A DNA stretch of 27,439 nt from Candidatus Caldarchaeales archaeon (GCA_039630085.1 JBCNVM010000013.1:1-27439), one strand, 5' to 3'. Shown: positions 2,733-26,671, counted from the stretch's first letter. Translations and numbers: made by a program. Notes: generated from the letters alone by a model not told the origin.

Positions 2733-2780
2733 CCGAAGAACCCACTCGTCCCCCCAATTTAACCCTCATGGGCCCTCGGC

Positions 2781-4758: not shown

Positions 4759-4864
4759 CGAGCTTACTAGGTCCCGACTCTTCGACGCATATTAATCTCT
4801 GCAGTACGGTGACGTGACGTAGACGGTTAAAGAGTTATATTAAATCAAGGGTAGGGTTGAGGGG

Positions 4865-5468: not shown

Positions 5469-5672
5469 TTAACTGAGCGGTAGGTGTGTCCTCTCGCCTA
5501 TCGCCGCGTTGACTGGAGTTATCGGTCTGCTCGCGGCGTTCTCCATAAACATCTTGTAGTGCTCTGGAGCTAGTTCTACTGCGATTGTCCTCTCTGCACC
5601 TCTGTCCGGAAAGCATAACACAGAGTCTCCTACGTAAGCGCCGACGTTCAACCCGGTCGTGCGCCTTACCAA
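5469..5672 (-). pseudogene. Decayed FkbM-family SAM methyltransferase fragment
   Basis: LNVGAYVGDSVLCF..RGAERTIAVE..PEHYKMFMEN matches the FkbM motif I/II region; the frame is short and followed by stops. Confidence 0.7.
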
Positions 5673-5709
5673 ATTAGGGACGACGTGTGAAGCCTTTTTC
5701 GTTTGACAC

Positions 5710-6609: not shown

Positions 6610-6729
6610 GGATCACATTTCTATTGACCGGAAGTTTATAAGAGTTATCCATAACAGCGCTCGGTCGCGTGTCCTGTGGGAGAGCGTGACTGGCTCCGGC
6701 TGCCCGGCACCGAGGCGTCTAACCGCCGC

Positions 6730-6795
6730 CTATCTCCTCACGGATCCCAGCTCCCTCTCGGTATCCCTCCGCTTGACCGCCTTGTCGAAGAGGAA
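6730..6795 (-). pseudogene. 3' fragment of a small ATP-cone-domain protein gene
   Basis: Translates FLFDKAVKRRDTERELGSVRR*, resembling the C-terminus of small archaeal ATP-cone proteins; host-like GC inside a lower-GC region. Confidence 0.6.
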
Positions 6796-6971
6796 GGTAA
6801 GGTTTTGGTGTATCTATAGCTCTTTCAATAGGGTGGAAAGGGATAGACGAAAAATTAAAAATGAATACGAACGTGAGGGTGAACTGTAAATCAGGTAATG
6901 GGTGTAACGGGGAGTAAAAAGGGGGGACGTTACGTCTGAATATCGTCGGGAACGACCGGAGCTCGGTGAGT

Positions 6972-8162
6972 TTACCATCTCCAGATGGTCGACGATGTTG
7001 GCTTAACGCCAAACTTCTTCTCTACTTCTGCTGCTATCCGGTTGAACGGTAGACCTCTTTTACGTAACTCGACTGCGAATTCATAAATCTGTAATACTAG
7101 TGAAGGTTTTAGGTACCATGGTCGTTTCTCCAGTCGTATTTCGATTAGTTGATCGAGCATCTCTTGCTTTCGTTTTATGTTAAAGCCGATTAATTCTCTG
7201 AACTTCAGGATGTCATCGAACCTATCAATAGAAAATGCATAGCAGTCTTTAAGCGCGATGATCTTCCTCCCGTTCCACTCGTGCACATCGCCTACTCGAG
7301 ATGTGATGTAGATTCGCGAAGTCCTTATTCCGAACTCTTCTAGCAGCGCTTTTGCGTACTCCAAAAGTTCGCGGTTTGTGTTGTGGATTCGGACCTCACC
7401 ACTAACTGTACCTTCTGCGTCATACAGTCCTTGTAGAAACGCGATCTTGGTCTCGGTTGAGAGCTCGATAAATGGTCGGAGCTTGTTGAGATCTTTGTCT
7501 TTTAACAGCTCGAATAAAGCAACAGAGTTAACGGATACGTGATATATCGGTCGTCCGTGTTGGATATATTTTCTTATCGGTGGAGGAGATCTTACGAGAA
7601 CATGTCCGATACTAACGGCGAACCCCTGTACATAATCATGATCGGCAACCGCTAGCATAACCTTCTTCTCAACATAACCTCTTTTGGACCGCCACATCCT
7701 CACGTATCCGTCTCCTAAAACGCTGCTAACGACGTACGAGAGATCCTTGGAAGGTCTCAGATCTTCTACCTTTACCGGTCGTTTGGACTTTTTCTTGGTC
7801 TTCTTAACTGGCGGACGGGGGACTCCGCGTACCCAGTCGACAATAGTGTTGATGCTCAGTCGCTTACCGAACGACTTCTCGAGCTCATCAGCTATCAGGC
7901 GAAGGGAGTAACCCTCGCCCGTCAGTCTCCTTGCCTCCTCGCGAAGTTGAGGGTATTTAGGTCTGCATATTCGCTTCGAGGAGGGCGACGACATCCCTCG
8001 CTTTCGCGGAGGTAGCGAAATCGGCGCCATCTTCTCTCCGAGTGAGTTGTGTAACCCGCGCACCCATCTAGATATCGTGCTAGTAGGAGGCTTCTTTCCG
8101 AACCTCGAGTGAATTTCTTCTTGGATTTTCGCGTAACTTAGCCCCAGTTGCGCGAGCCGCAA
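6972..8162 (-). CDS. Free-standing LAGLIDADG endonuclease-family protein with three HTH-like repeats
   Basis: Motifs LSYVVSSVLGDG and AFLQGLYDAEG. The repeat unit GxS(Y/L/F)xxIxxE(I/L/V)xxxFGxKxxxxTIxxW occurs twice at the N-terminus and once at the C-terminus. Confidence 0.85.
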   Translation of the reverse strand: MRLAQLGLSYAKIQEEIHSRFGKKPPTSTISRWVRGLHNSLGEKMAPISLPPRKRGMSSPSSKRICRPKYPQLREEARRLTGEGYSLRLIADELEKSFGKRLSINTIVDWVRGVPRPPVKKTKKKSKRPVKVEDLRPSKDLSYVVSSVLGDGYVRMWRSKRGYVEKKVMLAVADHDYVQGFAVSIGHVLVRSPPPIRKYIQHGRPIYHVSVNSVALFELLKDKDLNKLRPFIELSTETKIAFLQGLYDAEGTVSGEVRIHNTNRELLEYAKALLEEFGIRTSRIYITSRVGDVHEWNGRKIIALKDCYAFSIDRFDDILKFRELIGFNIKRKQEMLDQLIEIRLEKRPWYLKPSLVLQIYEFAVELRKRGLPFNRIAAEVEKKFGVKPTSSTIWRW

Positions 8163-13158: not shown

Positions 13159-15258
13159 ATGGCGAGGGACGTCGTCTGCGGGATGTACGTCGACGAGCGG
13201 GAGTCCGAGTTCAGTGTCGAGCGCGGAGGGGTACTCTACCACTTCTGCAGCAGGTCCTGCATGCTCCAGTTCCTCGAGCCGGAGATCGAGCTGAGGAGGT
13301 TGAGGGCCCTCGTCGCATTCAGCCTGTCCTCGGGCGCCATCATCGGCCTCCTCGAGCTCCTCGGGCCCATTCCGGACCACCACTCGACGGGCCTCCTCCT
13401 ACTCCTCCTCGCGACGCCGGTCCAGTTCGTCGCGGGCCTCAGATTCTACAGGGGTCTGATCGACGCGCTGAGGTCCAAGCAGGCGAACATGGACAGCCTG
13501 ATCGCGATCGGGACCACGACCGCGTGGGCCTACAGCGCCCTCGTCGCGCTCCAGGACTTCGGGCTCGTCCCCCAGCTGGTCCAGCCTCCTCCCGGAGAGC
13601 ACAGGTACTACTTCCTCGAGTCGTCGCTGATCGTGGGCTTCATCCTGCTGGGAAGGACCCTCGAGCACCGGGTCAGGGTCAGGGCCGAGGAGGCGGTCAG
13701 GTCGCTCTACGAGCTCCACCCCGACAGGGCGGTCGTGGTCAGGGAAGGTCAGGAGGTCTCGGTCCCGGCCGAGGAGGTCGGAGTCGGCGAGCTGGTGGTG
13801 GTTCGGCCCGGGGAGAGGATACCGGTCGACGGCGTCGTCGTCGAGGGCTCGACCAGCGTCGACCAGTCTTCGATGACCGGCGAGAGCGCGCCCGTCGAGA
13901 AGAAGATCGGAGACGAGGTCATCGCGGGAACGGTCAACATCACGGGGATGATCCGGGTGAGGGCCATCAGGACGGGCCAGGACACGACGCTCTCGCAGGT
14001 CCTCAGGACGGTCCAGGAGGCGATACTCTCGAGGGTCCCGCTCCAGCGGCTCGCCGACAGGGTCGCCTCGGTCTTCGTCCCGGTGGTGGTCCTCGTCGCG
14101 CTCGGGGCTTCGGCCTACTGGGGTCTGGTCGCGGGGATGCCGTTCAGCTTCTCGATGTTGATCGCGGTCTCGGTGCTGATCATCGCCTGCCCCTGCGCCC
14201 TCGGGATCGCGACGCCCGCGGCGATCATGGTCAGCGCCGGGAGGGCCGCGAGGAGGGGGATCCTGATCAGGTCCGGAGAGGCGCTCGAGTCGCTGAGGAG
14301 GGCGACCGTGGCTGTCTTCGACAAGACGGGGACGCTGACCAAGGGCAGGCCGAGGGTCGTGAGGGTCGTCGCCGCCGAGGGGTTCGGAGAGGAGGAGGTC
14401 CTGAGGCTCGCCGCCTCGGCGGAGTCCGCGTCCAACCACCCGATCGCGCAGGCGGTCCTCGAGCACGCGATGTCAAGGGACGTCGAGCCCGTCGAGCTGA
14501 AGGAGGGGGGCGTCGTCGCGGGGAGGGGCGTGGTCGCGAGGCTGGACGGCTCCACGGTCAGGGTGGGGAGCGTAGCCTTCCTCGAGTCGGAGGGCGTCAA
14601 GGTCCAGGAGGAGCTGAGGGACGTCATCGGGGAGATGCAGGCCTCGGGTCTCACGGCGGTCGCGGTCGGCCTGGAAGGGAGGGCGGTCGGCGCGATAGGG
14701 CTCCTCGACGTTCCGAGGGACGAGGCCCGCGAGGTCGTCGAGTCCCTGAAGTCTAGGGGGATGAGGGTCCTGATGCTCACGGGAGACAGCGAGGAGACCG
14801 CGAGGGCGGTCGCGGACCTCGTCGGTATCGAGGAGTTCAGGGCCTCCCTCCTCCCGCACCAGAAGGCCGAGTTCGTCAGGGAGCTGCGGAGGTCCGGGGA
14901 GGTGGTGGTGATGGTCGGGGACGGGATCAACGACGCTCCGGCGCTGGTCGAGGCGGACGTCGGGATCTCGATGGGCTCCGGGACAGACCTCGCGAAGCAG
15001 GCAGGAAGCCTCGTCCTCCTCGGCAACGACCTGAGGGACGCCGTGAGGGCGATCGACCTCAGCAGGGTCACCGTCAGGAAGATCAAGCAGAACCTCTTCT
15101 GGGCCTTCGCGCACAACGTCGCCCTCATCCCCGTCGCCGCGGGCGTCCTCTACCCTCTGGGCTTCCTCCTCAACCCGGTCTACGCGGCGATAGCGATGGC
15201 GATGAGCTCGATCTCGGTGACGCTGAACTCGATGAGCCTCTACAGGGTCCCGATATGA
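13159..15258 (+). CDS. copA: Heavy-metal (Cu) P1B-type ATPase with N-terminal YHS/TRASH domain
   Basis: DVVCGM...[34 protein letters not shown] and MAMSS motifs. Confidence 0.92.
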
Positions 15259-15259
15259 C

Positions 15260-15841
15260 TCAGCCCTCCGAGGACCTCACGACGAGCAGGTCCGAATAGA
15301 GAGGGCCTTCGGGCCTCAGGACGCTCCTCTTCAGCTTGAACCTGTCGACTCGGACCTCGCCCACCTCGACGGCCGAGAGCCTCTCGATCGCCTGGAGGAC
15401 CCTGGGCCTGTTGCTGACGCCCTTGACCCTCAGGATCGTGATGTGGGGCGCGAACTCCTTGTCGGGCCTGAGGCCCAGCTTGGAGGCCCTCTCGACGACC
15501 GCCCTCTGGAGGCCGTGCATCTCGCCGCTCGGGTCCTGCACGCCCACCCAGACGACGTTGATCCTCCCGCCGCCGGGGAAGTAGCCGACCCCGGAGAGCC
15601 TGACGGTGAAGGGCCTGAACCTGATCCCCGAGAGCTCCTCCTTCAGCCTCTCGACGACCTCCTTGGGCTGCTCGCCGAAGAACTGGAGCGTCACGTGGAG
15701 CGTCTCCGGGTCCACCTGCTTCGCGATCAGCCCGGCCTCGATCAGCTCCCTCCCGACGTTCGAGATCGTCCTGGTTATCTCGGGCGTGAAGACGTCGACC
15801 GCCGCGAAGCACCTGATCAGCTCTTCGGGACGCTGGGCCAT
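15260..15841 (-). CDS. thpR: RNA 2',3'-cyclic phosphodiesterase (2H family)
   Basis: Two HxT motifs (LHVTLQFFGE, PHITILR), N-terminal RCFAAV, C-terminal SVLRPEGPLY. Own TATA-like TTTATC at 15867-15872. Confidence 0.92.
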   Translation of the reverse strand: MAQRPEELIRCFAAVDVFTPEITRTISNVGRELIEAGLIAKQVDPETLHVTLQFFGEQPKEVVERLKEELSGIRFRPFTVRLSGVGYFPGGGRINVVWVGVQDPSGEMHGLQRAVVERASKLGLRPDKEFAPHITILRVKGVSNRPRVLQAIERLSAVEVGEVRVDRFKLKRSVLRPEGPLYSDLLVVRSSEG

Positions 15842-15887
15842 CCGTCGGCCGTCGGGTCAGCCCGGAGATAAACGGCTCGCGGCCGCG

Positions 15888-17483
15888 TCAGAGGGGTCCC
15901 GCGCCCCTCATCCTGCGGAGCATCGCCCTGCTGACCCTCTCCGCGACGACGTCCCAGTCGAGTTCGCCGACCGAACCGGCGTTGACGTTGAGGGTGACGT
16001 TCAGGGTTATCGGCCTGGAAGGCCCCGGCCCGAGCCCCCCGAGAGAGGAGATCAGCCTCTCGACGGCCTGGAGCGTCTCGGACTGTCCCCACTCCGTCCA
16101 CCTGACCACCTCGGTCCACATCTCAGGGACGATCGACCTGCCCACGAGCTGGTTGTGGAGCCACTCGAACGCCGAGCGGATCCCCGAGACTATTGAGTTG
16201 ATCAAGTCCAGAACGGGCCTCAGGAGCGACTCGGCGGCGCCGTGAATGGCGGAGAATGTCCTCGACGCGGCCTCGGAGAGCCACCCGAGCGCCTCGCCGA
16301 AGGCCCTCACCGCGGAGACCGCCTGCCCGGCGACGAACCCGACCAACGGCACCAGGACGCTGTTCCAGACCCACGACGCCGTCTCCCCGAGCCTGTTAAA
16401 CGTCGAGGTCGCGGCCTCCACGAACTTGGAGGCTGTGGTGAAGGAGCTCACGAGCTGTCCGATCAGGAACGCGGCCAGGGGCTCGAGCGCGTTCTTCCAC
16501 AGCCAGCTCAGCGCCGCCGAGAGCGCCTCCGCGATCGCGGCGAACGTCCTGACCTGACCGAGCAGCCACTCGAGGACGACCGAGAGGACGGAGCCGAGGA
16601 ACGATCCGATCGGCGCGAGCACGTCGTTCAGCAGCCACTCGAGCGCCGGGCCCAGCGCGGAGCTCACCGCGGAGGCGACGCCCTCGAAGACTGGGGTCAC
16701 CTTCTCCCAATTGGCGGCGATCAGGGCCGCGGCCGTCCCAATCCCGACCAGGGCCAGGCCGATCGGGCCCATGGAAGCGTAGAGCGCCGCGAAGGCCGCC
16801 TTCACCGCGCCGAGCGCGGAGCTCAGGGTGGGCGAGAGCGCCGCGACCGCCGAGAGCCCGTTCACGACCGACATGAACTTCGGGACCAGCTCGACCGAGC
16901 TCAGGCCGACCGCGAACAGCTGCGCCTGAAAGCTCCTCATCGAGGCCTCGACGTCGCCGCTCGCCTTCTGGAGCTGCCTCTGGACCTCCTCGACGCTACT
17001 CAGGGCCTCCCTCAGCCTCTCCGCGGCGGGCCCGCTCGCCTCCTTCGCGCCGATCATCTCCCTCAGCGCCCGCGCAGCCTCCTCGGCCGTGGAGGCCTGT
17101 ATCCCGAACTCGGCGTTGAGCTCCCTCAGCAGGGACGCCTGCCTCTCTTGGGCCGAGGCGAGGACGAGCTGGGCGGCGTGGAGCCTCGTCATCGAGGCGT
17201 CGAGGGCCGTGATGACCCTCGAGACCGACTCGCCGAGCCCCGCGACCTCGCCCAGCTGCCTCGCGACGAACTGCGCCCTCTCCCCGAAGACCTGCGACTC
17301 CTCCTGGACCGCCCTGAGGACCGCCTTCTGCTCCCTCGACTGCCTGACGACCTCCTTCGCCCTCGCGACCACCTCCTCGTTGGCCTCGCCGAGCCTCCTC
17401 AGCTCCTCCGAGACCGACGCGATCTCGTCGGTGGCGTCGTCCCTCCCAACGAACTCTATTCCTATCCTATACGCCTCGCTCAC
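15888..17483 (-). CDS. Tail tape measure protein
   Basis: N-terminal IGIEFVGRDDAT, Ala/Glu-rich coiled coil, GPIGLALVGIG..LIAANWEK, periodic Trp/Phe repeats (EWLLNDVLAP, SWLWKNALEP, SWVWNSVLVP), VGRSIVPEM. Confidence 0.85.
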   Translation of the reverse strand: MSEAYRIGIEFVGRDDATDEIASVSEELRRLGEANEEVVARAKEVVRQSREQKAVLRAVQEESQVFGERAQFVARQLGEVAGLGESVSRVITALDASMTRLHAAQLVLASAQERQASLLRELNAEFGIQASTAEEAARALREMIGAKEASGPAAERLREALSSVEEVQRQLQKASGDVEASMRSFQAQLFAVGLSSVELVPKFMSVVNGLSAVAALSPTLSSALGAVKAAFAALYASMGPIGLALVGIGTAAALIAANWEKVTPVFEGVASAVSSALGPALEWLLNDVLAPIGSFLGSVLSVVLEWLLGQVRTFAAIAEALSAALSWLWKNALEPLAAFLIGQLVSSFTTASKFVEAATSTFNRLGETASWVWNSVLVPLVGFVAGQAVSAVRAFGEALGWLSEAASRTFSAIHGAAESLLRPVLDLINSIVSGIRSAFEWLHNQLVGRSIVPEMWTEVVRWTEWGQSETLQAVERLISSLGGLGPGPSRPITLNVTLNVNAGSVGELDWDVVAERVSRAMLRRMRGAGPL

Positions 17484-17886
17484 GGAGCAGCGACCTCGCC
17501 AGCTCGCGGAGACCGCGCAGGGACTCTCCGGCGGCCCTCCCCAGGAACCGGTGCGGCCTGATACCGGGATGGACGTCGACGAACCTGAAGCCCAGGCCGC
17601 TTACGTAGACCGGAGCCCCGAGCCTGAAGGGCCTGACGCCGAACTCGACGTAGGGCCAGTAGCTCGCGCCCGGAGTCACCGAGAACCTCATCGCGCCCAA
17701 CCTTCTCGCCGAGATGCTCGCCGCCAGCCTCCCGGTCCTCTTAGGGGCGTACTGAGCGGCCTTAGACGCGGTGATCCTCGCGAGCGATTCCAGCAGCCTC
17801 TCCTCCGCATCCGCGACGGCCCTCGGGTCCAGCGACCTCAGGGCCTTCTCAAGGCCCCTGACCCTCACCTCCGTAGCTCCCTCCAC
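17467..17886 (-). CDS. HK97 gp10-like tail completion/neck protein
   Basis: VRGLEKALRSL...AAQYAPKRTGRLAASI...YWPYVEFG...HPGIRPHRFL consensus. Confidence 0.85.
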   Translation of the reverse strand: MEGATEVRVRGLEKALRSLDPRAVADAEERLLESLARITASKAAQYAPKRTGRLAASISARRLGAMRFSVTPGASYWPYVEFGVRPFRLGAPVYVSGLGFRFVDVHPGIRPHRFLGRAAGESLRGLRELARSLLRERGV

Positions 17887-17964
17887 CTCCTCCGGTCGTC
17901 CAGGGAGAGCTCGCGGGCCACCAGAAGGTCCAGCACGAGGTCCTCCAGCCTGCCCCTCAGCATC

Positions 17965-18276
17965 TCAGAGGGCCTCCTCCCGAACCTCTCCGCCACCCTT
18001 CCGAGCGCGAGCATCTCCTGCCTCCCGAAAGCTCGCGGCCGCCTCCCTCATCAGCGACGCGTAGAGCGCCATCACCTTGGCCAGGACTACGTCCTCGTCG
18101 CCCTCGGGGTAGGGCTCGACGCATATCTCGAGGACCTTCCTCTCCGCGAGCTCGATCCTGTCGTCGCTGGGCGGGGCATCGGTCAGCGCCCTCGCGAGCG
18201 TCTGGAGGTGAGGCCAGGCCTTCGCCCTCAGCCTAACAGCGTAGGACCTGCCGTTGGCCTCGACACTGAAGGGCAA
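17965..18276 (-). CDS. Tail assembly chaperone (G form); +1 frameshift product (GT form) would extend to 17865
   Basis: Lies directly after the tail tube gene. AGC-TTT-CGG at 18025-18033; the +1 frame reads FGRQEMLALGRVAERFGRRPSEMLRG...RELRR*. Confidence 0.75.
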   Translation of the reverse strand: MPFSVEANGRSYAVRLRAKAWPHLQTLARALTDAPPSDDRIELAERKVLEICVEPYPEGDEDVVLAKVMALYASLMREAAASFREAGDARARKGGGEVREEAL

Positions 18277-18280
18277 GGCG

Positions 18281-19204
18281 TCACCCCGGCAGCTGCTCCT
18301 CGGTCTGGACCCTGAACCTCACGGGAGGCTCGCCCTGAGGGGTCGCGAGCGCCCTGAACTCGACCTCCTGGACCGACCTCTCGGAGGGCACCACCTCGCA
18401 GCTCCAAGAGGAGTAGCAGACCCTCGGGAGCTCCACGACCACCTCCCTGTCGATGCCCTGCGCGACCGAGCCGCTCCTCATCCTGACCGAGATCGATGTC
18501 TCCTGGCCTGAGAGGAACCTGTCGAGGTGCGCCCTGCTCCCGAACCTCCCTGAGAACGTGCCCGTCACGCTGAGCCCTCCGAGCTCGTGCCTCCTGAGCG
18601 TCCTCGACCCGATGACGTAGTGGTCCGAGGAGAGGTCGTTCTCGAGCCTCAGCGTCAGCTCCTCCAGCTCGACCTGCTCTCCACCTATCAGGCAGACGAC
18701 GTCCTCGGGCCTCACCGGGTGGACCCTCGAGAAGCTCGGGGACCTGGGGCTTCCGGGCAGCTCGTTCAGCCCGAGGAACTCCAGCGACGCGGTCGCCGGC
18801 TCGTCGGGCCTCAGGCTAAGCTCCATCGAGTTCCCGAAGGCCCCCGCGACTACCCTCGTGACCCCTTCGTCCCTGAGCTCGACCGTGAAGGTAGGGAAGC
18901 TCTCCCACCTCTCGACTGGAACGAAGGAGTGGACGAAGTAGCCGTCGGAGCCCGTCGAGTCGACCCTCCCGAGCGTCATCGCCAGCGCCAGCATCGAGAA
19001 CGCGTCCGGGCCGAAGAGCCCCTCGACCTCGCCCTCGACCCTCAGGCCGCCCAAGTGCCTCAGCCTCGGGAACCTGCTCGCGACGGTCTCGATAGCCCTC
19101 TCCTCAAACACCGGCCTCACGTCGAACCTCCTCGGGTCGATGAAGACCTGCGGCGCGACGGGGTTCCCCTGCGTCGACTCCCTCCCGATCCCTACGTACC
19201 TCAT
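18281..19204 (-). CDS. Tail tube (major tail) protein, siphovirus type
   Basis: YVGIGRESTQGNPV, PTFTVE, GAFGNSMELS, LTLRLENDL, VTGTFS and ELPRVCYS pattern of non-contractile tail tube proteins; position upstream of chaperone and tape measure. Confidence 0.85.
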   Translation of the reverse strand: MRYVGIGRESTQGNPVAPQVFIDPRRFDVRPVFEERAIETVASRFPRLRHLGGLRVEGEVEGLFGPDAFSMLALAMTLGRVDSTGSDGYFVHSFVPVERWESFPTFTVELRDEGVTRVVAGAFGNSMELSLRPDEPATASLEFLGLNELPGSPRSPSFSRVHPVRPEDVVCLIGGEQVELEELTLRLENDLSSDHYVIGSRTLRRHELGGLSVTGTFSGRFGSRAHLDRFLSGQETSISVRMRSGSVAQGIDREVVVELPRVCYSSWSCEVVPSERSVQEVEFRALATPQGEPPVRFRVQTEEQLPG

Positions 19205-19264
19205 CGGCCCTGACCGCCCGACGGAAGGAATTTCTGGACTGTGCCACAGTCACCGTGACGCACT

Positions 19265-19459
19265 TCACCTGTAAAACGGCGCGCGTGCGGCCCTCCTCTC
19301 CGACTCCTCCATCGCCGCGAGGCCCAATTTGATCAGCTTCGCGATGTACCTGCTCCTCGGGACGTCGCCCCTCATCTCCTCGATCCTCATCAGCAGCTCC
19401 TCGTCGATGTAGATCGTCACGTGGTAGCCGGGCACGCTCTCCCGCCTCACCGACACCAC
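19265..19459 (-). CDS. Ribbon-helix-helix (CopG-like) DNA-binding protein
   Basis: HVTIYIDEELLMRIEEMRGDVPRSRYIAKLIKLGL fits the beta-alpha-alpha RHH pattern. Confidence 0.8.
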   Translation of the reverse strand: MVSVRRESVPGYHVTIYIDEELLMRIEEMRGDVPRSRYIAKLIKLGLAAMEESERRAARAPFYR

Positions 19460-19602
19460 ATATCGGTACGAGCGCGAGCGACGTGGTGCGTTCGCCCGGT
19501 ATTATGCACGTCACGCAGGTGTAGTCGTTATCGTAACCCCAGCAGTGTTAGATCTACTAGTTTTGGCAGAAGAGTGAATTCCTCTCGCTAAGAGCTGCGG
19601 GC

Positions 19603-20847
19603 GTGCTGGCGCGGGTGATGAAGGCGCTAGCGAGGGCCGCGGCGAGTCGTGACGGGTCGGCGGCGATCTCTCCTCAGGCGTGCGTGATCGGGTCCGTCGA
19701 TTACCACCTCAGGGAGCACTCGGACCCGGACTTCGGTCTACTCGTCGAATGGTACAGGAGGGACAGCTACGTCAAGTTCGCGGTTGACTCGATAGTCGCC
19801 AGGATAGGCGCGAGGTACTACCTTGTCGGCGAGGACGGGGAGCTCCTCAGGGTCGTCGACTCGTTCCTGAGGAGGAACAGGTTCCTCGAGGTCCACATGA
19901 AGGTCGCGAGGGACGTCGTCCTCAGCGGCAACGCCTTCCTCAACTTGGTCCCCAGGGGAAGGGTCAACACGATCCATTACGTCCCGCTCTCGAGCGTCAG
20001 GTCCGTTGTCCGGGGGCCCGACGGCAGGCCCCTGAAGTACGTCCTGAGCTGGCACGGGAGGACGGTAGAGCTGGACGCGGAGGAGGTCTGGCACTTCAGG
20101 TTCAACCCTGTCGACGAGGGCGCCTTCGGGGAGGGCCTCGTCAACCACCTCGCGAGGCCGGGCGTCGGCTACCCGGTGAGGGGGAGGACCGTGAGGAGGC
20201 CGCCGCTCCTGGAGGTCAAGGAGAGGATCGACAACGCCGCGAGGGTCCTCGTCGAGAAGTACCCGCAGAGGAGCGTCTTCGTCGTCCCGAGGGCGGCGAG
20301 GGACTCCTTCAAGGAGGCCTACGAACAGGCGATGGTCGGACAGGACCTCGTCGTGGACTTCGACGTCAAGCAGCTGGAGGTGAAGGTCGACTCGAGGACC
20401 AGGTTCTACGAGCTGATCGAGCACCTCGACAGGCAGGTCGTCACCGGCCTCAGGAACCCGCTGATCAGGCTGATCACCTACACGGGGTTCACCTACGCCA
20501 GCGCCCAGGCCGCGATCGAGACGCTCGAGCCCGAGGTCGCCCTCCTTAGGGACTTCCTCAGCTCCCAGTACGAGGAGATGATCTCGGTGGTCCTCAGGCA
20601 GCACGGGATCGACCCGGGGCCCTCGGGCGTGAGGCTGGTCTTCGGCGAGCCGCAGGCACCTTCGTGGGACGTGAAGGACGTCATAGCGGCCGCGAGGGGC
20701 GACGACCGGAACCCTCCCATCATCTCGATCGAGGAGGCGAGGGAGATGCTCAGGCTCGCGGGCTGGAGGCTCCAAGGAGGCCAGGCCAGGTCCTCCCCGA
20801 GGACCTACTGCCTCTCCGGGGGCGTCCTGAGGGAGCGGGGGTGGTGA
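19603..20847 (+). CDS. Portal protein (HK97-like)
   Basis: YVKFAVDSIVARI, ARDVVLSGNAFL, LDAEEVWHFRFNP..GAFGEG and ISIEEAREML motifs; first gene of the head operon. Confidence 0.88.
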   Translation: MLARVMKALARAAASRDGSAAISPQACVIGSVDYHLREHSDPDFGLLVEWYRRDSYVKFAVDSIVARIGARYYLVGEDGELLRVVDSFLRRNRFLEVHMKVARDVVLSGNAFLNLVPRGRVNTIHYVPLSSVRSVVRGPDGRPLKYVLSWHGRTVELDAEEVWHFRFNPVDEGAFGEGLVNHLARPGVGYPVRGRTVRRPPLLEVKERIDNAARVLVEKYPQRSVFVVPRAARDSFKEAYEQAMVGQDLVVDFDVKQLEVKVDSRTRFYELIEHLDRQVVTGLRNPLIRLITYTGFTYASAQAAIETLEPEVALLRDFLSSQYEEMISVVLRQHGIDPGPSGVRLVFGEPQAPSWDVKDVIAAARGDDRNPPIISIEEAREMLRLAGWRLQGGQARSSPRTYCLSGGVLRERGW

Positions 20848-20848
20848 C

Positions 20849-21889
20849 GTGAGCTCCAAGGGCGTGAGCGAGCTGAGGGCCGAGCTGCTGAGGCTGGTCG
20901 CCACGAGGGGCCACGAGAGCCCCGAGGCGAGGTCGAAGGCGAGGGAGCTGGCGGAGCTGGTGACGTCCTCCGAAAGCCGGAGGCCGCAGGCCGCCTCGCA
21001 CTCCTTCAGCTGGGTCTCTCCGGGCGCGCACCACGGGAGGGTCGTCAGGGTCGTCGCGGTCAGGGCCGGGAGGAGCAGGGGAGAGCCCTCCTACTTCATC
21101 TCCGGAGAGGAGCTCGTGAGGGCCGCGAGGACGCTCGCCCTGAAGCCCGTCGACGTCGACCACCTGCTCTTCCCGACGCCGATCGCGCTCCTCTTCCCCG
21201 AGGTCGCCGACGCCTACGCCGGGAAGTGGGGGATCGACGTGACCAGGTGGGCCGGGACGGTCCTCGACGCGGAGGCCGAGGACGACCGGCTCGAGGCAGT
21301 GGTGGCCCTCGAGGAGCCCAGGGTCCACGCGCTGGCCCTCTCGGGGGCCTTCAGGGGCGCGAGCGTCGTCGAGTGGGCGAGGAGCGAGTCCTGCAGGGCG
21401 ACCGACTCCGGCACCGTCTGCGAGAGGAGGGGCGTACACTTCAGTGCCCTCTCGCTCTGCCTGGAGTTGGAGCCCGCGTTCGAGGGGACGGGCGTCGAGC
21501 CGCTTTCCTCCGAGTCACAAGGGGCCCTCGGGCCCGCGGTCTTCTCCCTCACAGGGCTCGCCGGACTTCACCCGCCCTCGGCCGCGATCGCGTCCCGGCC
21601 CGACCCGCCGGAGCCCTGCGACCACTCGGAGTTCCTGAGGGCCCTCGAGTTCGAGGTCCCGCGCCAGGTCCCCGCGTACTTCCTGAGGGAGGTCGCGAGG
21701 AGGCTCGAGAGGGAGGTCGGCTCGTGCGGTCACTCGTACGTCCTCGGCCTCCTCCCGGCGCCCGAGGGCCCGAGGGTCAGCGGCGCCCGGCTCGCGGCCG
21801 CGCTCAGGCTCCTCAGGGATCACCTCTCGAAGAGCCCGAGGTCGAACTCCTCGGGCGCGAAGGAGGTGTCGTGTCGTGCCTGCACCTGA
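20849..21889 (+). CDS. Prohead protease/scaffold-like protein
   Basis: ISGEELVRAARTLALKPVDVDH (His), GTVLDAE, GAFRGASV (Ser), FSALSL..EPAF; located between portal and capsid genes. Confidence 0.7.
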   Translation: MSSKGVSELRAELLRLVATRGHESPEARSKARELAELVTSSESRRPQAASHSFSWVSPGAHHGRVVRVVAVRAGRSRGEPSYFISGEELVRAARTLALKPVDVDHLLFPTPIALLFPEVADAYAGKWGIDVTRWAGTVLDAEAEDDRLEAVVALEEPRVHALALSGAFRGASVVEWARSESCRATDSGTVCERRGVHFSALSLCLELEPAFEGTGVEPLSSESQGALGPAVFSLTGLAGLHPPSAAIASRPDPPEPCDHSEFLRALEFEVPRQVPAYFLREVARRLEREVGSCGHSYVLGLLPAPEGPRVSGARLAAALRLLRDHLSKSPRSNSSGAKEVSCRACT

Positions 21890-22337
21890 AGGGATCGGAA
21901 GGGCAGGAACCCTGCTCTGGAGGGCAGGAGAGGTGGCGAGCTACGTCGTGAGGAACCCGTCGGGGAACGCGCTGAGGGGAGGCGAGCCGCTGGTGGTCAG
22001 CGAGGAGGACGGGTCGCTGGTCCCGTCGACGGAAGGAGGCCGGAGGGCGGTCGCGGTCTTCGCAGAGGGCCAGGAGCTCAGGCCGGGCGAGAGGGGGACG
22101 AGGGCGGTCGTCTTCGTTGGGAACGTGGTCAGGGCCAGGGCCGCCTCGCAGATAAGGAGGGGCGGACTTGTCGCGGCCGGGGCCGGAGGGTTCGTACAGG
22201 TGGGAGAGCCCTCGCACCCCCAGGCTTACTCGGCCTCGAGCTCCGACGCGGTCGAGAGGGAGACGAGGAGCGTCTCAGGGATATCGCTCGACGAAGCTCA
22301 GTCTCCGGGCGAGGAGATCAGGGTGGTGCTGGTTTGA
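21876..22337 (+). CDS. Capsid cement/head decoration-like protein
   Basis: Small Gly-rich beta protein (LRGGEPLVV, GNVVRARAASQIRRGGLV, GISLDEAQSPGEEIRVVL) directly before the capsid gene; SD GGAGGTG at 21862-21868. Confidence 0.65.
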   Translation: MPAPEGIGRAGTLLWRAGEVASYVVRNPSGNALRGGEPLVVSEEDGSLVPSTEGGRRAVAVFAEGQELRPGERGTRAVVFVGNVVRARAASQIRRGGLVAAGAGGFVQVGEPSHPQAYSASSSDAVERETRSVSGISLDEAQSPGEEIRVVLV

Positions 22338-23323
22338 TCGAGGAGCTCAAGTCCAAACTCGAGGAGCTAGCGGCGGTCTACCCGGCGCTGCTGAGCAGGA
22401 GGTGCTACTCGATGCTCGACGTGGACTCCCAGGTCCTCAGTCACATCCCGAAGAGGGCCGCGGGCAACAAGTTCGTCCAGTACTGGGCCAAGCACGCGCT
22501 GACGGGGAGCGACGCGGGAGCGGTCGCGGAGGTCGTGAGGCAGGTGGTCGACGCGGCTTACCCGAAGCAGGTCTGGAGGGCGATGGGGACTTGGTACGAG
22601 GTCAGGGAGGCCAAGGTGAAGGTCCCGGTCGTCCCGAAAGTCCAGGCGCTCTTCGACGCGAAGGGAGCGGTCACGCCCGACGTCTCGACTCCGCCGAGGT
22701 ACCTCGAGATCGACACGGACCTTGACGCCGACGGACGCAGGATCAGGGCCAGGATCCTCTGGGACGTGAGCTTCCTCAACTCCGCCAACTGGCAGGTCGT
22801 TGAGGCCTACACGAGGAGCGTCGGGGAGGCCATCATGGTCAAGGCCACCGAGCACGTCTACGGCCTCTACGAGGGCCTCAGGTCCTCAGAGGTCGCCGAG
22901 GACGCGACGGTCGCGGGTCCCCTGAAGCTCGACCACCTGCTGGACCTCCGCGCGGCGATCGACGGCTCGGACCTCACGCCCTCCTACGGCAGCTACAGGT
23001 GCTTCCTCCACCCGGCGAGGTACAACGACCTCCTGAAGGACCAGAAGTTCGTCGACAGCCTGATGTTCGGCGAGTCCCTCGACAAGACCACCGGGATGCA
23101 GTCTAGGTCGACGGTCGGGATCGACTTCCACGTAACTTCGGTCGTCCCGAGGGACAAGGTCCTCCTGGTGAACCCGGAGAGGTCGCTGGTCGGCGTCGTC
23201 TACCAGAGCCTGATCGTCGAGCCGGTCGAGGTCAGCACCACGCTGACGGGGATAGACGCCTACATGCACGTCGCGGCGAAGGTCGCGGAGCCGAGGGCGG
23301 TCGCGAGACTGAGGCTGGCATGA
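22334..23323 (+). CDS. Major capsid protein, HK97 fold
   Basis: EVVRQVVDAAYP, LDHLLDLRAAI, FLHPARYNDLLKD, GIDFHVTSVVP..VLLVN, AAKVAEPRAVARL C-terminus. Confidence 0.85.
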   Translation: MIEELKSKLEELAAVYPALLSRRCYSMLDVDSQVLSHIPKRAAGNKFVQYWAKHALTGSDAGAVAEVVRQVVDAAYPKQVWRAMGTWYEVREAKVKVPVVPKVQALFDAKGAVTPDVSTPPRYLEIDTDLDADGRRIRARILWDVSFLNSANWQVVEAYTRSVGEAIMVKATEHVYGLYEGLRSSEVAEDATVAGPLKLDHLLDLRAAIDGSDLTPSYGSYRCFLHPARYNDLLKDQKFVDSLMFGESLDKTTGMQSRSTVGIDFHVTSVVPRDKVLLVNPERSLVGVVYQSLIVEPVEVSTTLTGIDAYMHVAAKVAEPRAVARLRLA

Positions 23324-23373
23324 CCGACAGGGACGAGCACTGGGAGGTCATTTACGTCAGGAGGGACACCCAC
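23297..23373 (+). repeat. Direct repeat copy 1 (capsid 3' end plus RHH 5' end)
   Basis: 76/77 identical to 27363-27439. Confidence 0.95.
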
Positions 23374-23496
23374 GGGATGCTGAAGCGCCAGGCGATCGAG
23401 AGGGGCCTCACGATGCGGGAGTTGGCCGACAGGGTCCTCTACGCGGTCCTCTCGGACAGGGAGGCCCTCGAGAGGGTCCTGAGGCGCTTCGCCTAA
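23320..23496 (+). CDS. Small RHH-like DNA-binding protein (58 aa, not in the ORF track)
   Basis: ATGA overlap with the capsid stop. MTDRDEHWEVIYVRRDTHGMLKRQAIERGLTMRELADRVLYAVL...; followed by a GTTTTTT tract. Confidence 0.75.
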   Translation: MTDRDEHWEVIYVRRDTHGMLKRQAIERGLTMRELADRVLYAVLSDREALERVLRRFA

Positions 23497-23582
23497 CCCG
23501 ACCCGATCTCCGTGTTTTTTGGGTAATATCGGTCCGCCTATCCCGTCTTTTCCGGCTTAAACGCATAAATTGTGAGCCTCGC

Positions 23583-23777
23583 GTGACCTACCGAACGGAG
23601 TTGCCACGGGACTCGCTGGTGGTGGAGACGAAGGTCAGGGAGCTGCTCCCGGAGGGGATGAGGCTGAGGGAGGACGCCCTCGAGGGGCTCAACGAGCTCG
23701 TGAAGGAGGCGGTGCAGAAGGCGGTGAAGAGGTGCCAGGCCAACAACAGGAAGACGATCATCAAGGAGGACTTCTGA
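23583..23777 (+). CDS. Small histone-fold protein
   Basis: LVVETKVRELL..MRLREDALEGLNELVKEAVQKAVKRCQANNRKTIIKEDF retains the RKT-x-x-x-x-D histone signature; TTAAA at 23557-23561. Confidence 0.85.
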   Translation: MTYRTELPRDSLVVETKVRELLPEGMRLREDALEGLNELVKEAVQKAVKRCQANNRKTIIKEDF

Positions 23778-23960: not shown

Positions 23961-25094
23961 CTAAGCCTCCGGCAGGTCTTCTAGGAATCGCTTGTTCAGG
24001 GCGTAGTAGACCGTCACCATGAACCCGAAGAGGAAGACGACGAGGACCGCGAGTATGGCGAAGACGAGGGGCCAGGGAATCTGGATGTAGATGTTGGTGA
24101 AGGCGGCCGGAGGTAGGCCCGTCTCTCCTAGCAGGACGAGGTACGGAGACCTCCCGCCGTCGTTCATGTATTCGCCGAGGAGGGCGGTGAGGACCGCGAG
24201 GGGGCCGAGCGCTAGCGCGTATCTCGGCGCCTCCCCAGCCCCGCGCCTGACAGTACGCCAGACCCGGTATGAGAGGGCGGCTAGGGCTGCTATGACGAGA
24301 AGCTTAGCGATGAACATGGGCAGCAGATTGACCGTGGATTTAGCTGTGCCCAAAACGTTGTCGTAGAGTACGGGCGCCTTTCCTCCGAGAGTCAGGAGAT
24401 ACCAGAGCCCGACGAGCGGCTGGACTGCGAGGAAAAGGACTCCATGCCACAGACCTATCCAGAGGAACTTCGGCGACGTGTTGCCCTTGATCGCGAAGAA
24501 GGACGCTGTGACGAAGCCCCCAACGGACATGGCTCCCATCCACGTGTGGAGTATCAGGGGCGGGTAGAGCGGGTTGTAGAAGACAGCGAGCCTCGCGATG
24601 TCCGGCGAGCCCCCAAGGGCCGTTCCCACACCGTGCGGGTAGGTTATCTCCGAGAAAACGTATCTGAAGCCCATCGGGACGGCGAATCCCGATAGGGCCA
24701 TGACGAATCCGAGGGCCGAATGTACGCTCGGCTGAAGCTTCCCCCAAGTATACCAGAAGAGGGCTATGCTCGGAATCCTGACTATTATGGCGGCCAGTGC
24801 TATGAGTAGGGGATAAAAAATCACGTCCGTGGCGATTGCTAACAACGTGGGGAAGAAGCCTGCCAATATGACCGTTATGATCGTCCCCCAGACACCGCTG
24901 AAGAGTTCGTGGACGACGAGTATTTTGAAGACCCGGCGCGACATTATCTCGAGCGAGGGATCCTCTCTACGCCAGGCCAGGAACCGCGCCATGGCAGATA
25001 TCCAGCCGGTCCCTATCGTGATGTTGACGAACGCTACGTGGACGAGGACGGCGATGCCGAGGATGTAAAATCCCAGGAATTCCGTCGCGTTCAT
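23961..25094 (-). CDS. Cytochrome bd oxidase second subunit, CydA-paralog type (CydA')
   Basis: Looks like a shortened CydA rather than CydB: HVAFVNITIG, SGVWGTI, LILHTW, GEYMNDGGRSPYLV (compare GWFVREVGRKPW). Confidence 0.8.
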   Translation of the reverse strand: MNATEFLGFYILGIAVLVHVAFVNITIGTGWISAMARFLAWRREDPSLEIMSRRVFKILVVHELFSGVWGTIITVILAGFFPTLLAIATDVIFYPLLIALAAIIVRIPSIALFWYTWGKLQPSVHSALGFVMALSGFAVPMGFRYVFSEITYPHGVGTALGGSPDIARLAVFYNPLYPPLILHTWMGAMSVGGFVTASFFAIKGNTSPKFLWIGLWHGVLFLAVQPLVGLWYLLTLGGKAPVLYDNVLGTAKSTVNLLPMFIAKLLVIAALAALSYRVWRTVRRGAGEAPRYALALGPLAVLTALLGEYMNDGGRSPYLVLLGETGLPPAAFTNIYIQIPWPLVFAILAVLVVFLFGFMVTVYYALNKRFLEDLPEA

Positions 25095-26671
25095 TCCTCA
25101 ACACCCGCCCCCCTTCTCAGAAGCCTGACGAACTCCAGCGGCCTCGTAGCCACGAGATACATGCCGACGACACCTGCTATGGACATGGCCGTGAAAAGCG
25201 TCGTGAAGGCGGCCATGGTCGCGGCTGAGACTTCTGCGGGCGTCACGAGCTCCTCCGGATAAAGCAGGCCGTAGACTGTCCAAGGCTTCCGACCCACCTC
25301 CCTCACGAACCAGCCCAAGGAGGCCGAAAGCACGGAGCCGAGAAGGGTCAGAAGGGCAAAGATGAAAATTAGTCGCCTCGCGCCCAGACGGCCGAACATC
25401 ACAGAAACGATTCTAGAGAGTGGGCCGAGGTTGAAGACCGAGGACGTCAGGGCCACCACCGAGGCCAGAGCCGTCACACCTGCCCCTATCTTAGCGTAAT
25501 AAGCCCCGTTAACCAGTTTGAGCCGGCCCTCGGCCGCCGCCAAGTCCCGAAGGCAGAGGTCTCTAAGCTTGACGTTGCTGGAGGGGCCGGGTTTGTATCC
25601 TGGAACTACCGCTGAGGCGACTTTACCGACGGTGGTATCGCCATGAGCTTCGCATTCTCTGCGGAAGGCGTCGAACCCGAGTATGGGTCTGGAGGGGTCG
25701 CCGTAGGCTAGGAATCCTAGTAGGGGGTTCTGGGTCGTCGTGGCCGCGCCCTCCATCAAGGCGAATTTCGTCGGCATGAACTCCGCAACGGACTTACCCA
25801 TTAGGTCGCCGAAAACAATAGGTTGGATAACGAGCAGAATCAGAAGGATCGGGAGGAAAGGCCTCAGGATCTTAACGTATCTCTGCTCTCCGGCCCGGAA
25901 GTGCATGTAGGATAGGGCTGCGGAAGCGATGGCAATTCCAATGATCACCGCGGCGGTCACGTTGTGGAGGACACTGACTAATGCGTAAGGTGAGTAGAGC
26001 GCTACGAACGGGTCGTTAAGGCTGATGCCGACGGCTCGAGCCACTTCAGGGCTCTGAAGAATCTGAGAAGCTGTTCCAACCGATAGCAGGCTATCTACGA
26101 GAGCCAGCTTGACCTTGACTAGGACGGCGGTGTCGAAGGCCGTAGGCCCATACTCCGGGAGATAGGGATAGAGGACGGAGGCGAGGGCCCCAGTCCCCCA
26201 AGGGACGTTAATCCAGCTGTTCACCATCGTTATCAAGGCCCCAGAGAAGGCTGCGAAGGCGAAGTAACCGCTCAAGAGCGCGATGCTTAGCCAGGGCTTC
26301 ACCCGCCGAAGAGTAACTATGAACGCGACGAGAAAGACAATTTCGCCGATGAAAGCCACCAGCTCCGCTGCTAAGGGGACGAAGGCAACGGTCGCTATAG
26401 CGTATATCGTGCCCGGCCAGGCTTGAACTAGGCCGAACTCCACGAGCGTGCCCGTTATGGCCCCTAAAGCGAAGTTAACGGCCAGGACGCCTGTCGCCGT
26501 CCTAGCCGCCTTGTAGTAATCCTCGTCGCGCGTCCTCCACCACTTATACAGGAGCGCCCCTATGACGAATGGGAAACCCAAAGTGATGGTGACGAATAGT
26601 GCATGCAAGTATATTCCGAGCGCGCTGATCGGCATTAGCAGGGAGACGCTTTCGGCGGCCTGCATGTCCAC
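25091..26671 (-). CDS. cydA: Cytochrome bd oxidase subunit I
   Basis: YLHALFVTITLG, NFALGAITGTLVEFG, VLHNV, PTKFALMEG and GWFVREVGRKPW motifs. Confidence 0.93.
   Translation of the reverse strand: MDMQAAESVSLLMPISALGIYLHALFVTITLGFPFVIGALLYKWWRTRDEDYYKAARTATGVLAVNFALGAITGTLVEFGLVQAWPGTIYAIATVAFVPLAAELVAFIGEIVFLVAFIVTLRRVKPWLSIALLSGYFAFAAFSGALITMVNSWINVPWGTGALASVLYPYLPEYGPTAFDTAVLVKVKLALVDSLLSVGTASQILQSPEVARAVGISLNDPFVALYSPYALVSVLHNVTAAVIIGIAIASAALSYMHFRAGEQRYVKILRPFLPILLILLVIQPIVFGDLMGKSVAEFMPTKFALMEGAATTTQNPLLGFLAYGDPSRPILGFDAFRRECEAHGDTTVGKVASAVVPGYKPGPSSNVKLRDLCLRDLAAAEGRLKLVNGAYYAKIGAGVTALASVVALTSSVFNLGPLSRIVSVMFGRLGARRLIFIFALLTLLGSVLSASLGWFVREVGRKPWTVYGLLYPEELVTPAEVSAATMAAFTTLFTAMSIAGVVGMYLVATRPLEFVRLLRRGAGVEE

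Follow-up and report, generated by a model that had tools for sequence, protein, structure and literature searches.

Intact tailed-virus genes at a fixed host locus in a Candidatus Caldarchaeales archaeon: one part of a candidate gene transfer agent-like system

We analysed a 27,439-nucleotide stretch of DNA, here called the window, from a Candidatus (Ca.) Caldarchaeales archaeon (GCA_039630085.1, JBCNVM010000013.1:1-27439), with the focus on a set of tailed-virus virion genes at positions 15888-23496. The window is the complete contig C5 of the metagenome-assembled genome (MAG) G000, an assembly of 1.41 Mb in 66 contigs that is ~90% complete. Its host group is Ca. Calditenuis/Calditenuaceae of the order Caldarchaeales (formerly Aigarchaeota), and the sequencing runs that contain the stretch are hot-spring metagenomes. 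Ten open reading frames (ORFs) fill the segment as two divergent operons, with the gene order RHH1, tail tube, orf103, gp10-like and tape measure on the minus strand and the order portal, protease (orf346), orf153, capsid and RHH2 on the plus strand. This segment is referred to below as locus 1, and two further sets of genes on contigs C45 and C1 of the same assembly as loci 2 and 3. The features of locus 1 are as follows.

15888..17483, minus strand: tape measure protein (TMP), 531 aa, last gene of the tail operon (at least 10 PHROG tape-measure families, best 1.1e-11)
17467..17886, minus strand: HK97 gp10-like tail completion/neck protein, 139 aa (PF04883, 1.1e-9, above cut-off; phrog_5, 9.5e-13)
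17965..18276, minus strand: orf103, small conserved protein between the tube and gp10-like genes (no family match)
18281..19204, minus strand: major tail (tube) protein, 307 aa (PF18906, 1e-21; phrog_290, 2.4e-25)
19265..19459, minus strand: RHH1, ribbon-helix-helix (RHH) repressor-like protein, first gene of the tail operon (phrog_4738 transcriptional repressor, 1.3e-6; Pfam RHH_1 only 0.083)
19460..19602, no strand: putative divergent control region, 143 nt (six-genome alignment)
19603..20847, plus strand: portal protein, 414 aa (PF04860, 1.2e-5, below cut-off; phrog_12, 8.2e-5)
20849..21889, plus strand: orf346, putative prohead protease, 346 aa, with a predicted assemblin-like fold at about residues 65-220 and a helical C-terminal extension (AlphaFold/Foldseek)
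21876..22337, plus strand: orf153, scaffolding or decoration protein candidate (phrog_673 'head scaffolding', 6e-5, only)
22334..23323, plus strand: major capsid protein (MCP), 329 aa, HK97 type by sequence (PHROG major-head families; Atlas)
23320..23496, plus strand: RHH2, small RHH-like protein recognised by eye only, end of the head operon (no family match)

A preliminary description of the segment had presented it as a 7.6 kb module of virion genes whose frames abut or overlap, and the layout of the ten ORFs bears this out. The TMP and gp10-like genes overlap by 17 nt, the protease gene and orf153 by 14 nt, and 4-nt overlaps join orf153 to the MCP gene and the MCP gene to RHH2, with the remaining intergenic gaps being 1, 4, 60 and 78 nt. 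Searches of the encoded proteins against Pfam, PHROGs and NCBIfam gave what appear to be solid assignments for the tail tube, gp10-like and tape measure proteins, and the tail tube profile also matched a solved 'major tail structural protein' (8xan_B, 3.1e-10). The portal and MCP assignments are weaker as single sequences, but are backed by their homologues: five of nine aligned portal homologues matched Phage_portal and two of nine Portal_Mu, while PHROG major-head families matched seven of nine MCP homologues (best 5.4e-8), with an Atlas feature score of 0.97 to Phage_capsid_4 clusters. These matches point to an HK97-type capsid at the level of sequence only; an AlphaFold model of the MCP from a nine-row alignment was too poor for a fold search (pLDDT 45), and the fold is unconfirmed. 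Sequence searches of the PDB with profiles of the capsid, portal and protease proteins, and of a 652-residue protein of locus 3 (tail652), gave no usable match.

The product of orf346 had no match in the sequence-family searches, including none to Pfam S78. Its AlphaFold model (pLDDT 70) had herpesvirus assemblin proteases as its top Foldseek matches in the PDB, which were weak (E of 4e-3 with probability 0.98 for the first; overall E of up to 0.1, probability of up to 0.99, TM of 0.24-0.46, or 0.3-0.46 by target). Two residues that may be catalytic, His105 and Ser172, are invariant across eight homologues, and the predicted fold together with this pair supports orf346 as a prohead (assemblin-like) serine protease. 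The neighbouring orf153 is found between the protease and MCP genes in three genera. The orf103 protein, which matched nothing in Pfam, PHROGs or NCBIfam, has 75-92% identity within the genus and 31-44% in two other genera, and its gene is inside the tail operon every time; from that position it is possibly a tail assembly chaperone. None of orf153, orf103, orf114, orf104 and orf355 had an NCBIfam match. Thus, of the labels first given to these genes, portal, protease, capsid, tail tube, gp10-like and tape measure stand, but 'cement' for orf153 and 'chaperone' for orf103 are unconfirmed. The segment had also been credited with two RHH regulators, a description borne out for RHH1 by its PHROG match but not for RHH2 by any family match.

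The genus is represented here by seven species-level genomes, G000 and its sisters G001-G006, and all genomes in this work are MAGs. RHH1 is present in every sister that carries the module, and RHH2 is conserved in 7/7 genomes of the genus, including G000 itself and G001, which kept it after a deletion described below. Downstream of RHH2 is a T-run at ~23513-23522. Alignment of the 143-nt region between the two operons revealed conserved blocks at 19500-19507 (TATTATGC), at 19549-19556 (the palindrome TAGATCTA) and at 19559-19571 (AGTTTTGGCAGAA). The core of the palindrome changes symmetrically in G006 and G004, from AGATCT to AAATTT. The portal start codon next to this region is conserved, and is ATG in the same two genomes. 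We infer that the region is a promoter/operator, and with RHH1 and RHH2 it forms an obvious candidate for control of the module.

The immediate neighbours of locus 1 are the following two genes.

15260..15841, minus strand: thpR, 2',5' RNA ligase/cyclic phosphodiesterase, host flank (LigT, PF02834, 1.8e-29)
23583..23777, plus strand: small histone-fold-like protein, host flank (NCBIfam archaeal histone, E 0.02, below cut-off)

The TMP stop codon lies 46 nt ahead of the thpR start codon. Flanks of thpR and a histone gene had been proposed, and the former is clear, but the histone-like protein has only its sub-threshold match and no Pfam match at E<=0.001. thpR adjoins locus 1 in all sisters whose contig extends there, including G001, and the histone-like gene is conserved beside RHH2 in G003, G004, G006 and G001. 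We found no tRNA in the whole window, no att-like exact repeat pair in a repeat search around locus 1 (only low-identity families typical of GC-rich coding DNA), no PF00589 integrase in the whole G000 assembly, and no replication family among the genes of the three loci, where unannotated small ORFs remain. The family, repeat and tRNA searches therefore agree with the initial view that no integrase, att pair, terminase or replication gene is recognisable at the module.

Composition likewise places the module with the host. The locus-1 genes have GC contents at third codon positions (GC3) of 0.82-0.97 and codon adaptation indices (CAI) of 0.70-0.84, as compared to GC3 of 0.91-0.96 and CAI of 0.80-0.88 in the adjoining CuATPase, thpR, AKR and NuoL genes. 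In contrast, islands at 1-8.2 kb of the window have a GC content of 0.47-0.54, GC3 of 0.52-0.66 and CAI of 0.35-0.45. The likeness of the module to its housekeeping neighbours, and its unlikeness to AT-richer islands, had been noted from the sequence and is upheld by both measures. The codon usage of loci 1 and 2 is fully ameliorated and matches that of host genes.

Comparison of relatives, by a capsid search across 40 genomes followed by DNA and protein comparisons, revealed the full set of ten genes, with order, orientation and gene lengths unchanged, in five of the six sisters (G003, G005, G002, G006 and G004). In these genomes the locus runs from CuATPase-thpR to RHH2, and then to the histone-like gene where contigs extend. 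The capsid gene of G006 and G004 is cut by contig ends that overlap, and insertions of a few host-type genes separate RHH2 from the histone-like gene in G005 and G002. The TMP gene is intact, at 532-533 codons, in 6/6 module-bearing genomes. The sixth sister, G001 (91% complete in 3 contigs), has a remnant at the same thpR/histone locus that is explained by one clean 6.4 kb deletion from the start of RHH2 to about codon 188 of the tape measure gene, with ~14 nt shared at the junction; it retains RHH2 and the 3' part of the tape measure gene, which is open for 345 codons. The same context was found, wherever the sequence extends, in 5/5 JGI metagenome contigs with capsids 77-78% identical. On the 94-kb contig of G003, the DNA beyond the histone-like gene is host DNA homologous to G000 contig C15. 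Host genes thus form the flanks in the long sister contigs, and no ordinary provirus extends outwards from the module.

The module genes evolve much as their surroundings do. Ratios of nonsynonymous to synonymous substitution (dN/dS) were calculated by the simple Nei-Gojobori method (NG86) for the close, independent pairs G000-G003, G006-G004 and G005-G002, distant pairs being saturated. Values were 0.08-0.13 for the portal, 0.08-0.11 for the capsid, 0.16-0.20 for the tube, 0.17-0.27 for the tape measure, 0.24-0.30 for the gp10-like protein, 0.23-0.30 for the protease, 0.16-0.24 for orf103 and 0.07-0.14 for orf153, versus 0.16-0.17 for CuATPase, 0.08-0.18 for thpR and 0.13 for the histone-like gene in the flanks. 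Two values in the module stood out, 0.55 for RHH1 (64 codons compared) and 0.34 for a fragment of orf153 that spans 30 codons. Portal and capsid protein conservation is at least that of CuATPase and thpR. Between G000 and G003, dS was 0.25-0.31 in seven of the ten module genes and 0.08-0.17 in three short ones, as against 0.23-0.25 in the flanks, which indicates that the module is as old as its surroundings in these lineages. Under a crude neutral model with equal rates, ~54 stop codons would be expected in 2,444 codons at a distance of 0.25, and none was observed.

Maximum-likelihood trees of the host flank (six genomes), of six concatenated locus-1 proteins (six genomes) and of four locus-2 proteins (seven genomes) have the same topology, ((G000,G003),(G006,G004)) versus (G005,G002,G001), with support values between 87 and 100; given the small number of taxa, this congruence serves as a consistency check only. 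Loci 1 and 2 are therefore vertically inherited under purifying selection, as is expected of a gene transfer agent (GTA), and locus 3 departs from this pattern through an excess of dS.

The packaging and connecting functions that locus 1 lacks were found elsewhere in the chromosome. A Terminase_6N search of the G000 assembly identified one gene, on contig C45, within a locus that spans 64.8-70.2 kb, and the only G000 homologues of the ORFs that come after the tape measure gene in five related loci are on contig C1.

C45:64776-65195, plus strand: gp17-like tail-completion protein (our own hidden Markov model from six related-element homologues, 2.5e-9; PF11367, 0.021)
C45, within the 64776-65640 region, minus strand: small membrane protein, convergent with the gp17-like gene and overlapping it by ~166 nt
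C45: head-tail adaptor-like protein, 108 aa (Mu Gp36, 1.8e-4; phrog_195, 0.019)
C45: two small ORFs directly upstream of TerL, in the small-terminase position
C45: large terminase TerL, 437 aa (PF03237, PF17289; phrog_2, 4e-44)
C45:68710-70230: ABC-ATPase/GNAT fusion, 506 aa, directly after TerL (viral-type clusters)
C1:130420-133868: three genes of 652 aa (tail652), 355 aa (orf355) and 140 aa (orf140) (homology to ORFs after the tape measure gene in five related loci)

Locus 2 has host genes on both sides, with a carbamoyltransferase gene on one and SMC further along the other. Its TerL conserves, in five aligned genus sequences including that of G001, the motifs that we take to be Walker A, Walker B, STP and the nuclease acidic residues, and by these motifs the enzyme appears catalytically intact. 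A second terminase family, PF03354, had no match in G000. Five tested locus-2 genes are intact in 7/7 genus genomes, with dN/dS of 0.06-0.30, and one short ORF has 0.51 over 63 codons. In genus g4, which belongs to the same family, the gp17-like and membrane-protein genes are both on the strand of the adaptor gene, and for this reason the convergence at C45:64776-65640 looks like the breakpoint of a rearrangement that moved the tail operon away. It is speculation that the conserved membrane protein is an egress or exclusion factor. The ABC-ATPase/GNAT protein (dN/dS 0.16-0.28) is linked to such elements in four genera (g1, g4, g13 and g15), with different neighbours on its other side each time, and about half of the proteins in its clusters are from tailed viruses.

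Locus 3 is located between genes for an amino-acid permease and an 8-oxoguanine glycosylase, and its three proteins are candidates for the tail tip, tail652 having a weak match to the PHROG tail family phrog_1887 ('tail', 1.4e-4). Orphan terminase, adaptor-like and candidate tail-tip genes are thus present outside the window, between host genes on C45 and C1. Contig arithmetic places loci 1 and 2 at least 34 kb apart, and loci 1 and 3 at least 134 kb apart. MCP, TerL, tube and tail652 each had a single match in G000.

A survey of 76 Caldarchaeales genomes, in which kin are not independent, revealed that arrangements differ between genera. MCP and tube were found together in 17 genomes, MCP only in four, tube only in four and neither in 51, and tail652 was found in 37 of the 76, often beside a TerL. 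The elements of genera g13 and g15 are contiguous over ~17 kb, while in g4 and g6 the head genes are apart from the tail and terminase genes. In G009, of genus g4, the tail operon, adaptor, TerL and ABC/GNAT genes form one locus and the head module is 19 kb away. These differences indicate that parts moved within chromosomes while staying intact. The tail-tip genes of Calditenuis have homologues in a cluster of gp10-like, tail652, orf355, orf140 and TerL genes that occurs in some genomes of the order. Host genes beside the g4, g13 and g15 elements have homologues in G000 that are 15-28 kb from locus 2, and in G001 genes of the C65 type are beside locus 3; the flanks thus hint at a shared ancestral site. 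G009 itself holds two element types, the split head and tail+TerL set on its contig C7, where the tail652 copy has an internal TAA, and a second set of gp10-like, tail652, orf355 and TerL genes at C14:17838-22544, an arrangement that is widespread in genera g3, g7, g9, g10 and g11.

Our reading is that the window contains locus 1 of a three-locus, immobilised tailed-virus particle system that is maintained by the host and, as known from its genes, is probably GTA-like. Immobilisation and selection are well supported; the transfer of genes is what we infer from them. Intact head, tail and packaging genes are all in the chromosome, and their being dispersed, fixed in place and evolving with the host indicates that they are not the genes of a working provirus. 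Because all are intact, non-redundant and under purifying selection, they are not neutral debris either. The portal, the capsid and an apparently catalytically intact terminase are among the most conserved of the proteins, so DNA packaging is probably part of the function that is selected, which makes a particle of the GTA-like or PBSX-like kind more likely than a bacteriocin that is only a tail. The distances between the loci and the lack of replication or excision genes suggest that a particle would not hold its own gene set and would carry cellular DNA. The suggestion that this is a domesticated, GTA-like system rather than a recent provirus has therefore gained support, from synteny, selection, congruent trees and the dispersal of the terminase, adaptor and tail-tip genes.

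Potentially, such a system would work as follows. The RHH proteins would gate the divergent promoters, and upon induction in some cells procapsids would assemble on the portal and be matured by the protease. The terminase would then fill the procapsids with DNA, and tails built on the tape measure would be joined via the adaptor, gp10-like and gp17-like proteins, with an exchangeable tail-tip cassette setting which cells are recognised. At ~0.15 nm per residue, a tape measure of 531 aa would give small siphovirus-like particles a tail of ~80 nm. A broader and more tentative proposal is that this is an ancient, chromosomally fixed GTA-like system of the Caldarchaeales, whose parts may have been shuffled among loci, differently in different genera, yet stayed functional and whose tail tip may be swapped horizontally to retarget the particle. 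The flank hints of a shared ancestral site support this proposal.

Several observations weigh against the view of a maintained, GTA-like system. Patchy presence with pseudogenisation in relatives had been named at the outset as evidence that would tell against domestication, and some loss does exist, in G001, in the tail-tip genes of G003 and G006, and in G020 and G023 of another genus, with the module otherwise intact. The deletion in G001 removed the capsid, portal, protease, tube and gp10-like genes. Locus 2 of G001 is nonetheless intact despite the loss of head and tail, with dN/dS no higher than in its sisters (TerL 0.14), which would be explained by a recent deletion or by a separate use for locus 2. 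In genus g6 (Ca. Terraquivivens), G020 (98% complete) has six stops in TerL and one in the capsid gene (C6:180466-181470; C7:63189-64109), and G023 has only a 45-residue TerL fragment (C2:170698-170832); loss of the system is under way in some lineages. The tape measure of one JGI contig is split between two frames. In the probable source run, a separate contig holds the module, at a depth of 11.9 versus 14-15.7 for the flanking contigs (contig depths being crude); it ends no more than ~30 nt from the tape-measure stop and just past the capsid stop (15870-15899; 23326-23472). A record of depth 2.4 from that run connects 15962 with 22370 through three extra letters. Roughly one-sixth of the source population may accordingly lack most of the module, as a presence/absence or deletion polymorphism. 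A joint of 14497 to 21388 in another of the four runs, all of DNA contigs, was set aside because one of its sides is only 21 letters long.

Locus 3 and the affinities of individual proteins add to these points. Between G000 and G003 the dS of locus 3 is 0.74 versus 0.22 for the flanking permease gene, a ~3-fold excess, and its GC3 (0.77 and 0.67) and CAI are low compared with the rest of the system. In G003 the reading frame of tail652 changes near residue 141-150, where the contig ends, and a different contig holds a second, divergent fragment. The G006 copy has an interruption beyond residue 512, and no copy was detected in either G005 (66% complete) or G002 (84% complete). The locus is intact in G001, and one flank is kept throughout the genus while the other differs in G001. 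The excess dS with low GC3 and CAI indicates horizontal exchange, and we read locus 3 as an exchangeable, strain-variable receptor-binding cassette, although it could be a piece of a different element lineage. In addition, the Calditenuis TerL and tube are nearer to elements of another family (41 and 38% identity, respectively) than to those of same-family g4 (30 and ~30%), and the capsid shows the reverse, being nearer to g4. With affinities as mosaic as these, the origin of the system may be chimeric.

A host-kept particle with a benefit other than gene transfer, such as a PBSX-like killer, a device for DNA release or biofilm, or a decoy against related viruses, is unlikely in our estimation, yet the evidence for immobilisation and selection fits it equally well. 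The hypervariable, horizontally exchanged tail tip also resembles the target-range switching of bacteriocin-like particles. Pure tail-type bacteriocins need no packaging, whereas dN/dS of 0.08-0.14 for the portal, capsid and terminase argues that packaging is part of what is selected here. PBSX-like particles package host DNA, cannot propagate, and kill rather than transfer; they are encoded by one contiguous, prophage-like region of bacteria. The present system is like PBSX in being a chromosomally fixed head-tail set and unlike it in the dispersal of its genes. Nothing here separates a PBSX-like particle from a GTA-like one, and killer particles are named as an alternative in the available part of PMC5797428. 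Neutral decay of one or several old proviruses into functionless debris is the least credible of the explanations that we weighed. It could draw on the G001 deletion, the broken tail-tip genes, the pseudogenes and TerL fragment of genus g6 and the possible deletion variant in the source population; the mosaic affinities could mean parts of different proviruses, and stop codons are rare in DNA of 65-70% GC. However, 10/10 locus-1 genes and 5/5 tested locus-2 genes are intact in all module-bearing sisters, with dN/dS of 0.06-0.30 at dS of up to ~0.9, and the ~54 stops expected under neutrality are for even the closest pair. Decay is further opposed by the ameliorated codon usage. An origin of the three loci as debris of separate proviruses is less likely, as there is exactly one copy for each function and selection acts on all of them.

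It is also improbable that these are genes of an active temperate virus, or of a helper-dependent satellite, whose replication and integration genes were unrecognised or are supplied by a helper. Archaeal virus replication genes are often unrecognisable, and small ORFs without assigned function (orf103, orf114, orf104 and orf294) are present, as are the contiguous related elements of g13 and g15. Caldarchaeales regions have, moreover, been read as Mu-like prophages (PMC10547907, available part). Against this, the genes are at three chromosomal places on three contigs, flanked by host genes, without an integrase or att pair, which does not conform to an integrated temperate provirus of the Caudoviricetes. 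Wherever the contigs of the genus extend into the flanks, the position of loci 1 and 2 is unchanged, and locus 3 is constant with regard to one flank; an active virus would also have to be reconciled with dS equal to that of the host and congruent trees. None of 235 unique CRISPR spacers of G000 matched the three loci or any related element that was fetched, only other arrays being matched. Pattern scans of IMG/VR with capsid and portal profiles found only two and four loci, respectively, with 23-29% identity; such scans need shared peptide patterns and are not proof of absence. As for satellites, those of the capsid-forming cf-PICI type are defined by integrase, replication/primase and head genes and lack the large terminase, and to our knowledge they carry no tail shaft genes. 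A cf-PICI-like satellite was rejected here, with tube, TMP and TerL present and an integrase absent.

The GTA-like system proposed here resembles that of Rhodobacter capsulatus (RcGTA) in being a siphovirus-like set of head and tail genes, without integrase or replication genes, that is spread over several loci (available parts of PMC5026251, PMC5721377 and PMC10883770, and otherwise general background). Vertical inheritance under purifying selection, host-like codons and occasional loss from lineages are further likenesses, known partly from the same sources. Differences are that the host is archaeal and thermophilic and that the present system is known from its genes. The large terminase is apart from the head genes here, whereas in RcGTA it heads the main cluster. 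There are two RHH regulators here, whereas control of RcGTA is of the quorum-sensing/phosphorelay type, and the tail-tip genes here look horizontally exchanged. Among archaea, the VTA of Methanococcus voltae is a comparable tailed phage-like particle that has been proposed to move host DNA (available part of PMC5797428, with details from general background). Its host is a euryarchaeal mesophile and it was defined by transfer and particles, whereas the present system is known as a set of genes.

The system had initially been called undescribed, which is too strong, since published work has already raised a GTA-like nature for immobilised head-tail elements of this order and of its sister group. 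From Ca. Caldiarchaeum subterraneum and a pair of thaumarchaea, Krupovic et al. (2019; PMC6563490) reported head-tail elements that have no att sites, integrase or replication genes, and called their domestication as GTA-like elements a 'distinct possibility'; the same suggestion, together with killer particles, was made by Abby et al. (2018; PMC5797428). Like the present system, those elements (CalSub-Pro, NCAV2-Pro1 and Nvie-Pro1) are from the same or a sister host group and encode TerL, portal, HK97 capsid, protease and tail proteins but no att sites, integrase or replication genes. They differ in being single loci around terL with approximate borders, as compared to three loci here, and are described by their authors as highly divergent among themselves. 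The available parts of the two papers report neither genus-wide synteny nor dN/dS, parity of dS or congruence of trees. Balbay et al. (2023; PMC10547907) described regions of Caldarchaeales MAGs as Mu-like prophages and, in the part available, counted an RNA 2',3'-cyclic phosphodiesterase among their genes. We rejected thpR as a gene of the element; it is adjacent only in this genus, was not found near related elements of other genera, was retained in G001 and evolves with a dN/dS like that of the host. A further implication is that regions called 'prophage' automatically in MAGs of this order, which in that study even took in a thpR-type gene, may be systems kept by the host.

Our literature search found no paper that names both Caldarchaeales and gene transfer agent, and among the matches listed for Calditenuis and capsid none was about this system. 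The three-locus architecture, the genus-wide synteny, selection and congruence, and the hypervariable tail-tip cassette were not found in print, supplements being outside the search. GTAs are genetically well defined in only a few bacterial groups, and the archaeal record consists of one old phenotype and speculation on immobilised proviruses. Against this background, the hallmarks of a complete non-mobile gene set, multi-locus dispersal, host-like evolution, purifying selection and occasional loss are documented here across seven species-level genomes. If the broader proposal of an ancient, chromosomally fixed system is true, no GTA would have been defined by its genes earlier in the Thermoproteota lineage or in a thermophile, and archaea would have their own, independent counterpart of the multilocus RcGTA. 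The analysis provides a concrete list of genes (capsid, portal, terminase, tube and variable tail tip) with which to seek particles in hot springs, DNA exchange and the domestication of viruses in archaea.

Other observations concern the surroundings of the three loci. The CRISPR arrays of G000 share one 24-nt repeat and are mostly on short contigs (C6, C7, C12, C26-C32, C41, C44-C46, C52 and C57-C61), the array ends on C45 being at 66-1334 and 98883-100561. The window islands at 985-8162 encode LAGLIDADG-domain ORFs at 985-2496 and 6972-8162, the latter with HTH domains, as well as a family-2 glycosyltransferase (5710-6609) and an unassigned 453-aa ORF (3397-4758). Beyond the histone-like gene, 23961-26671 contains two membrane-protein genes with GC3 of 0.70-0.77, one of which is weakly like cytochrome bd oxidase subunit I. 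These two genes are not at the corresponding position of G003, where host genes homologous to contig C15 of G000 are found.

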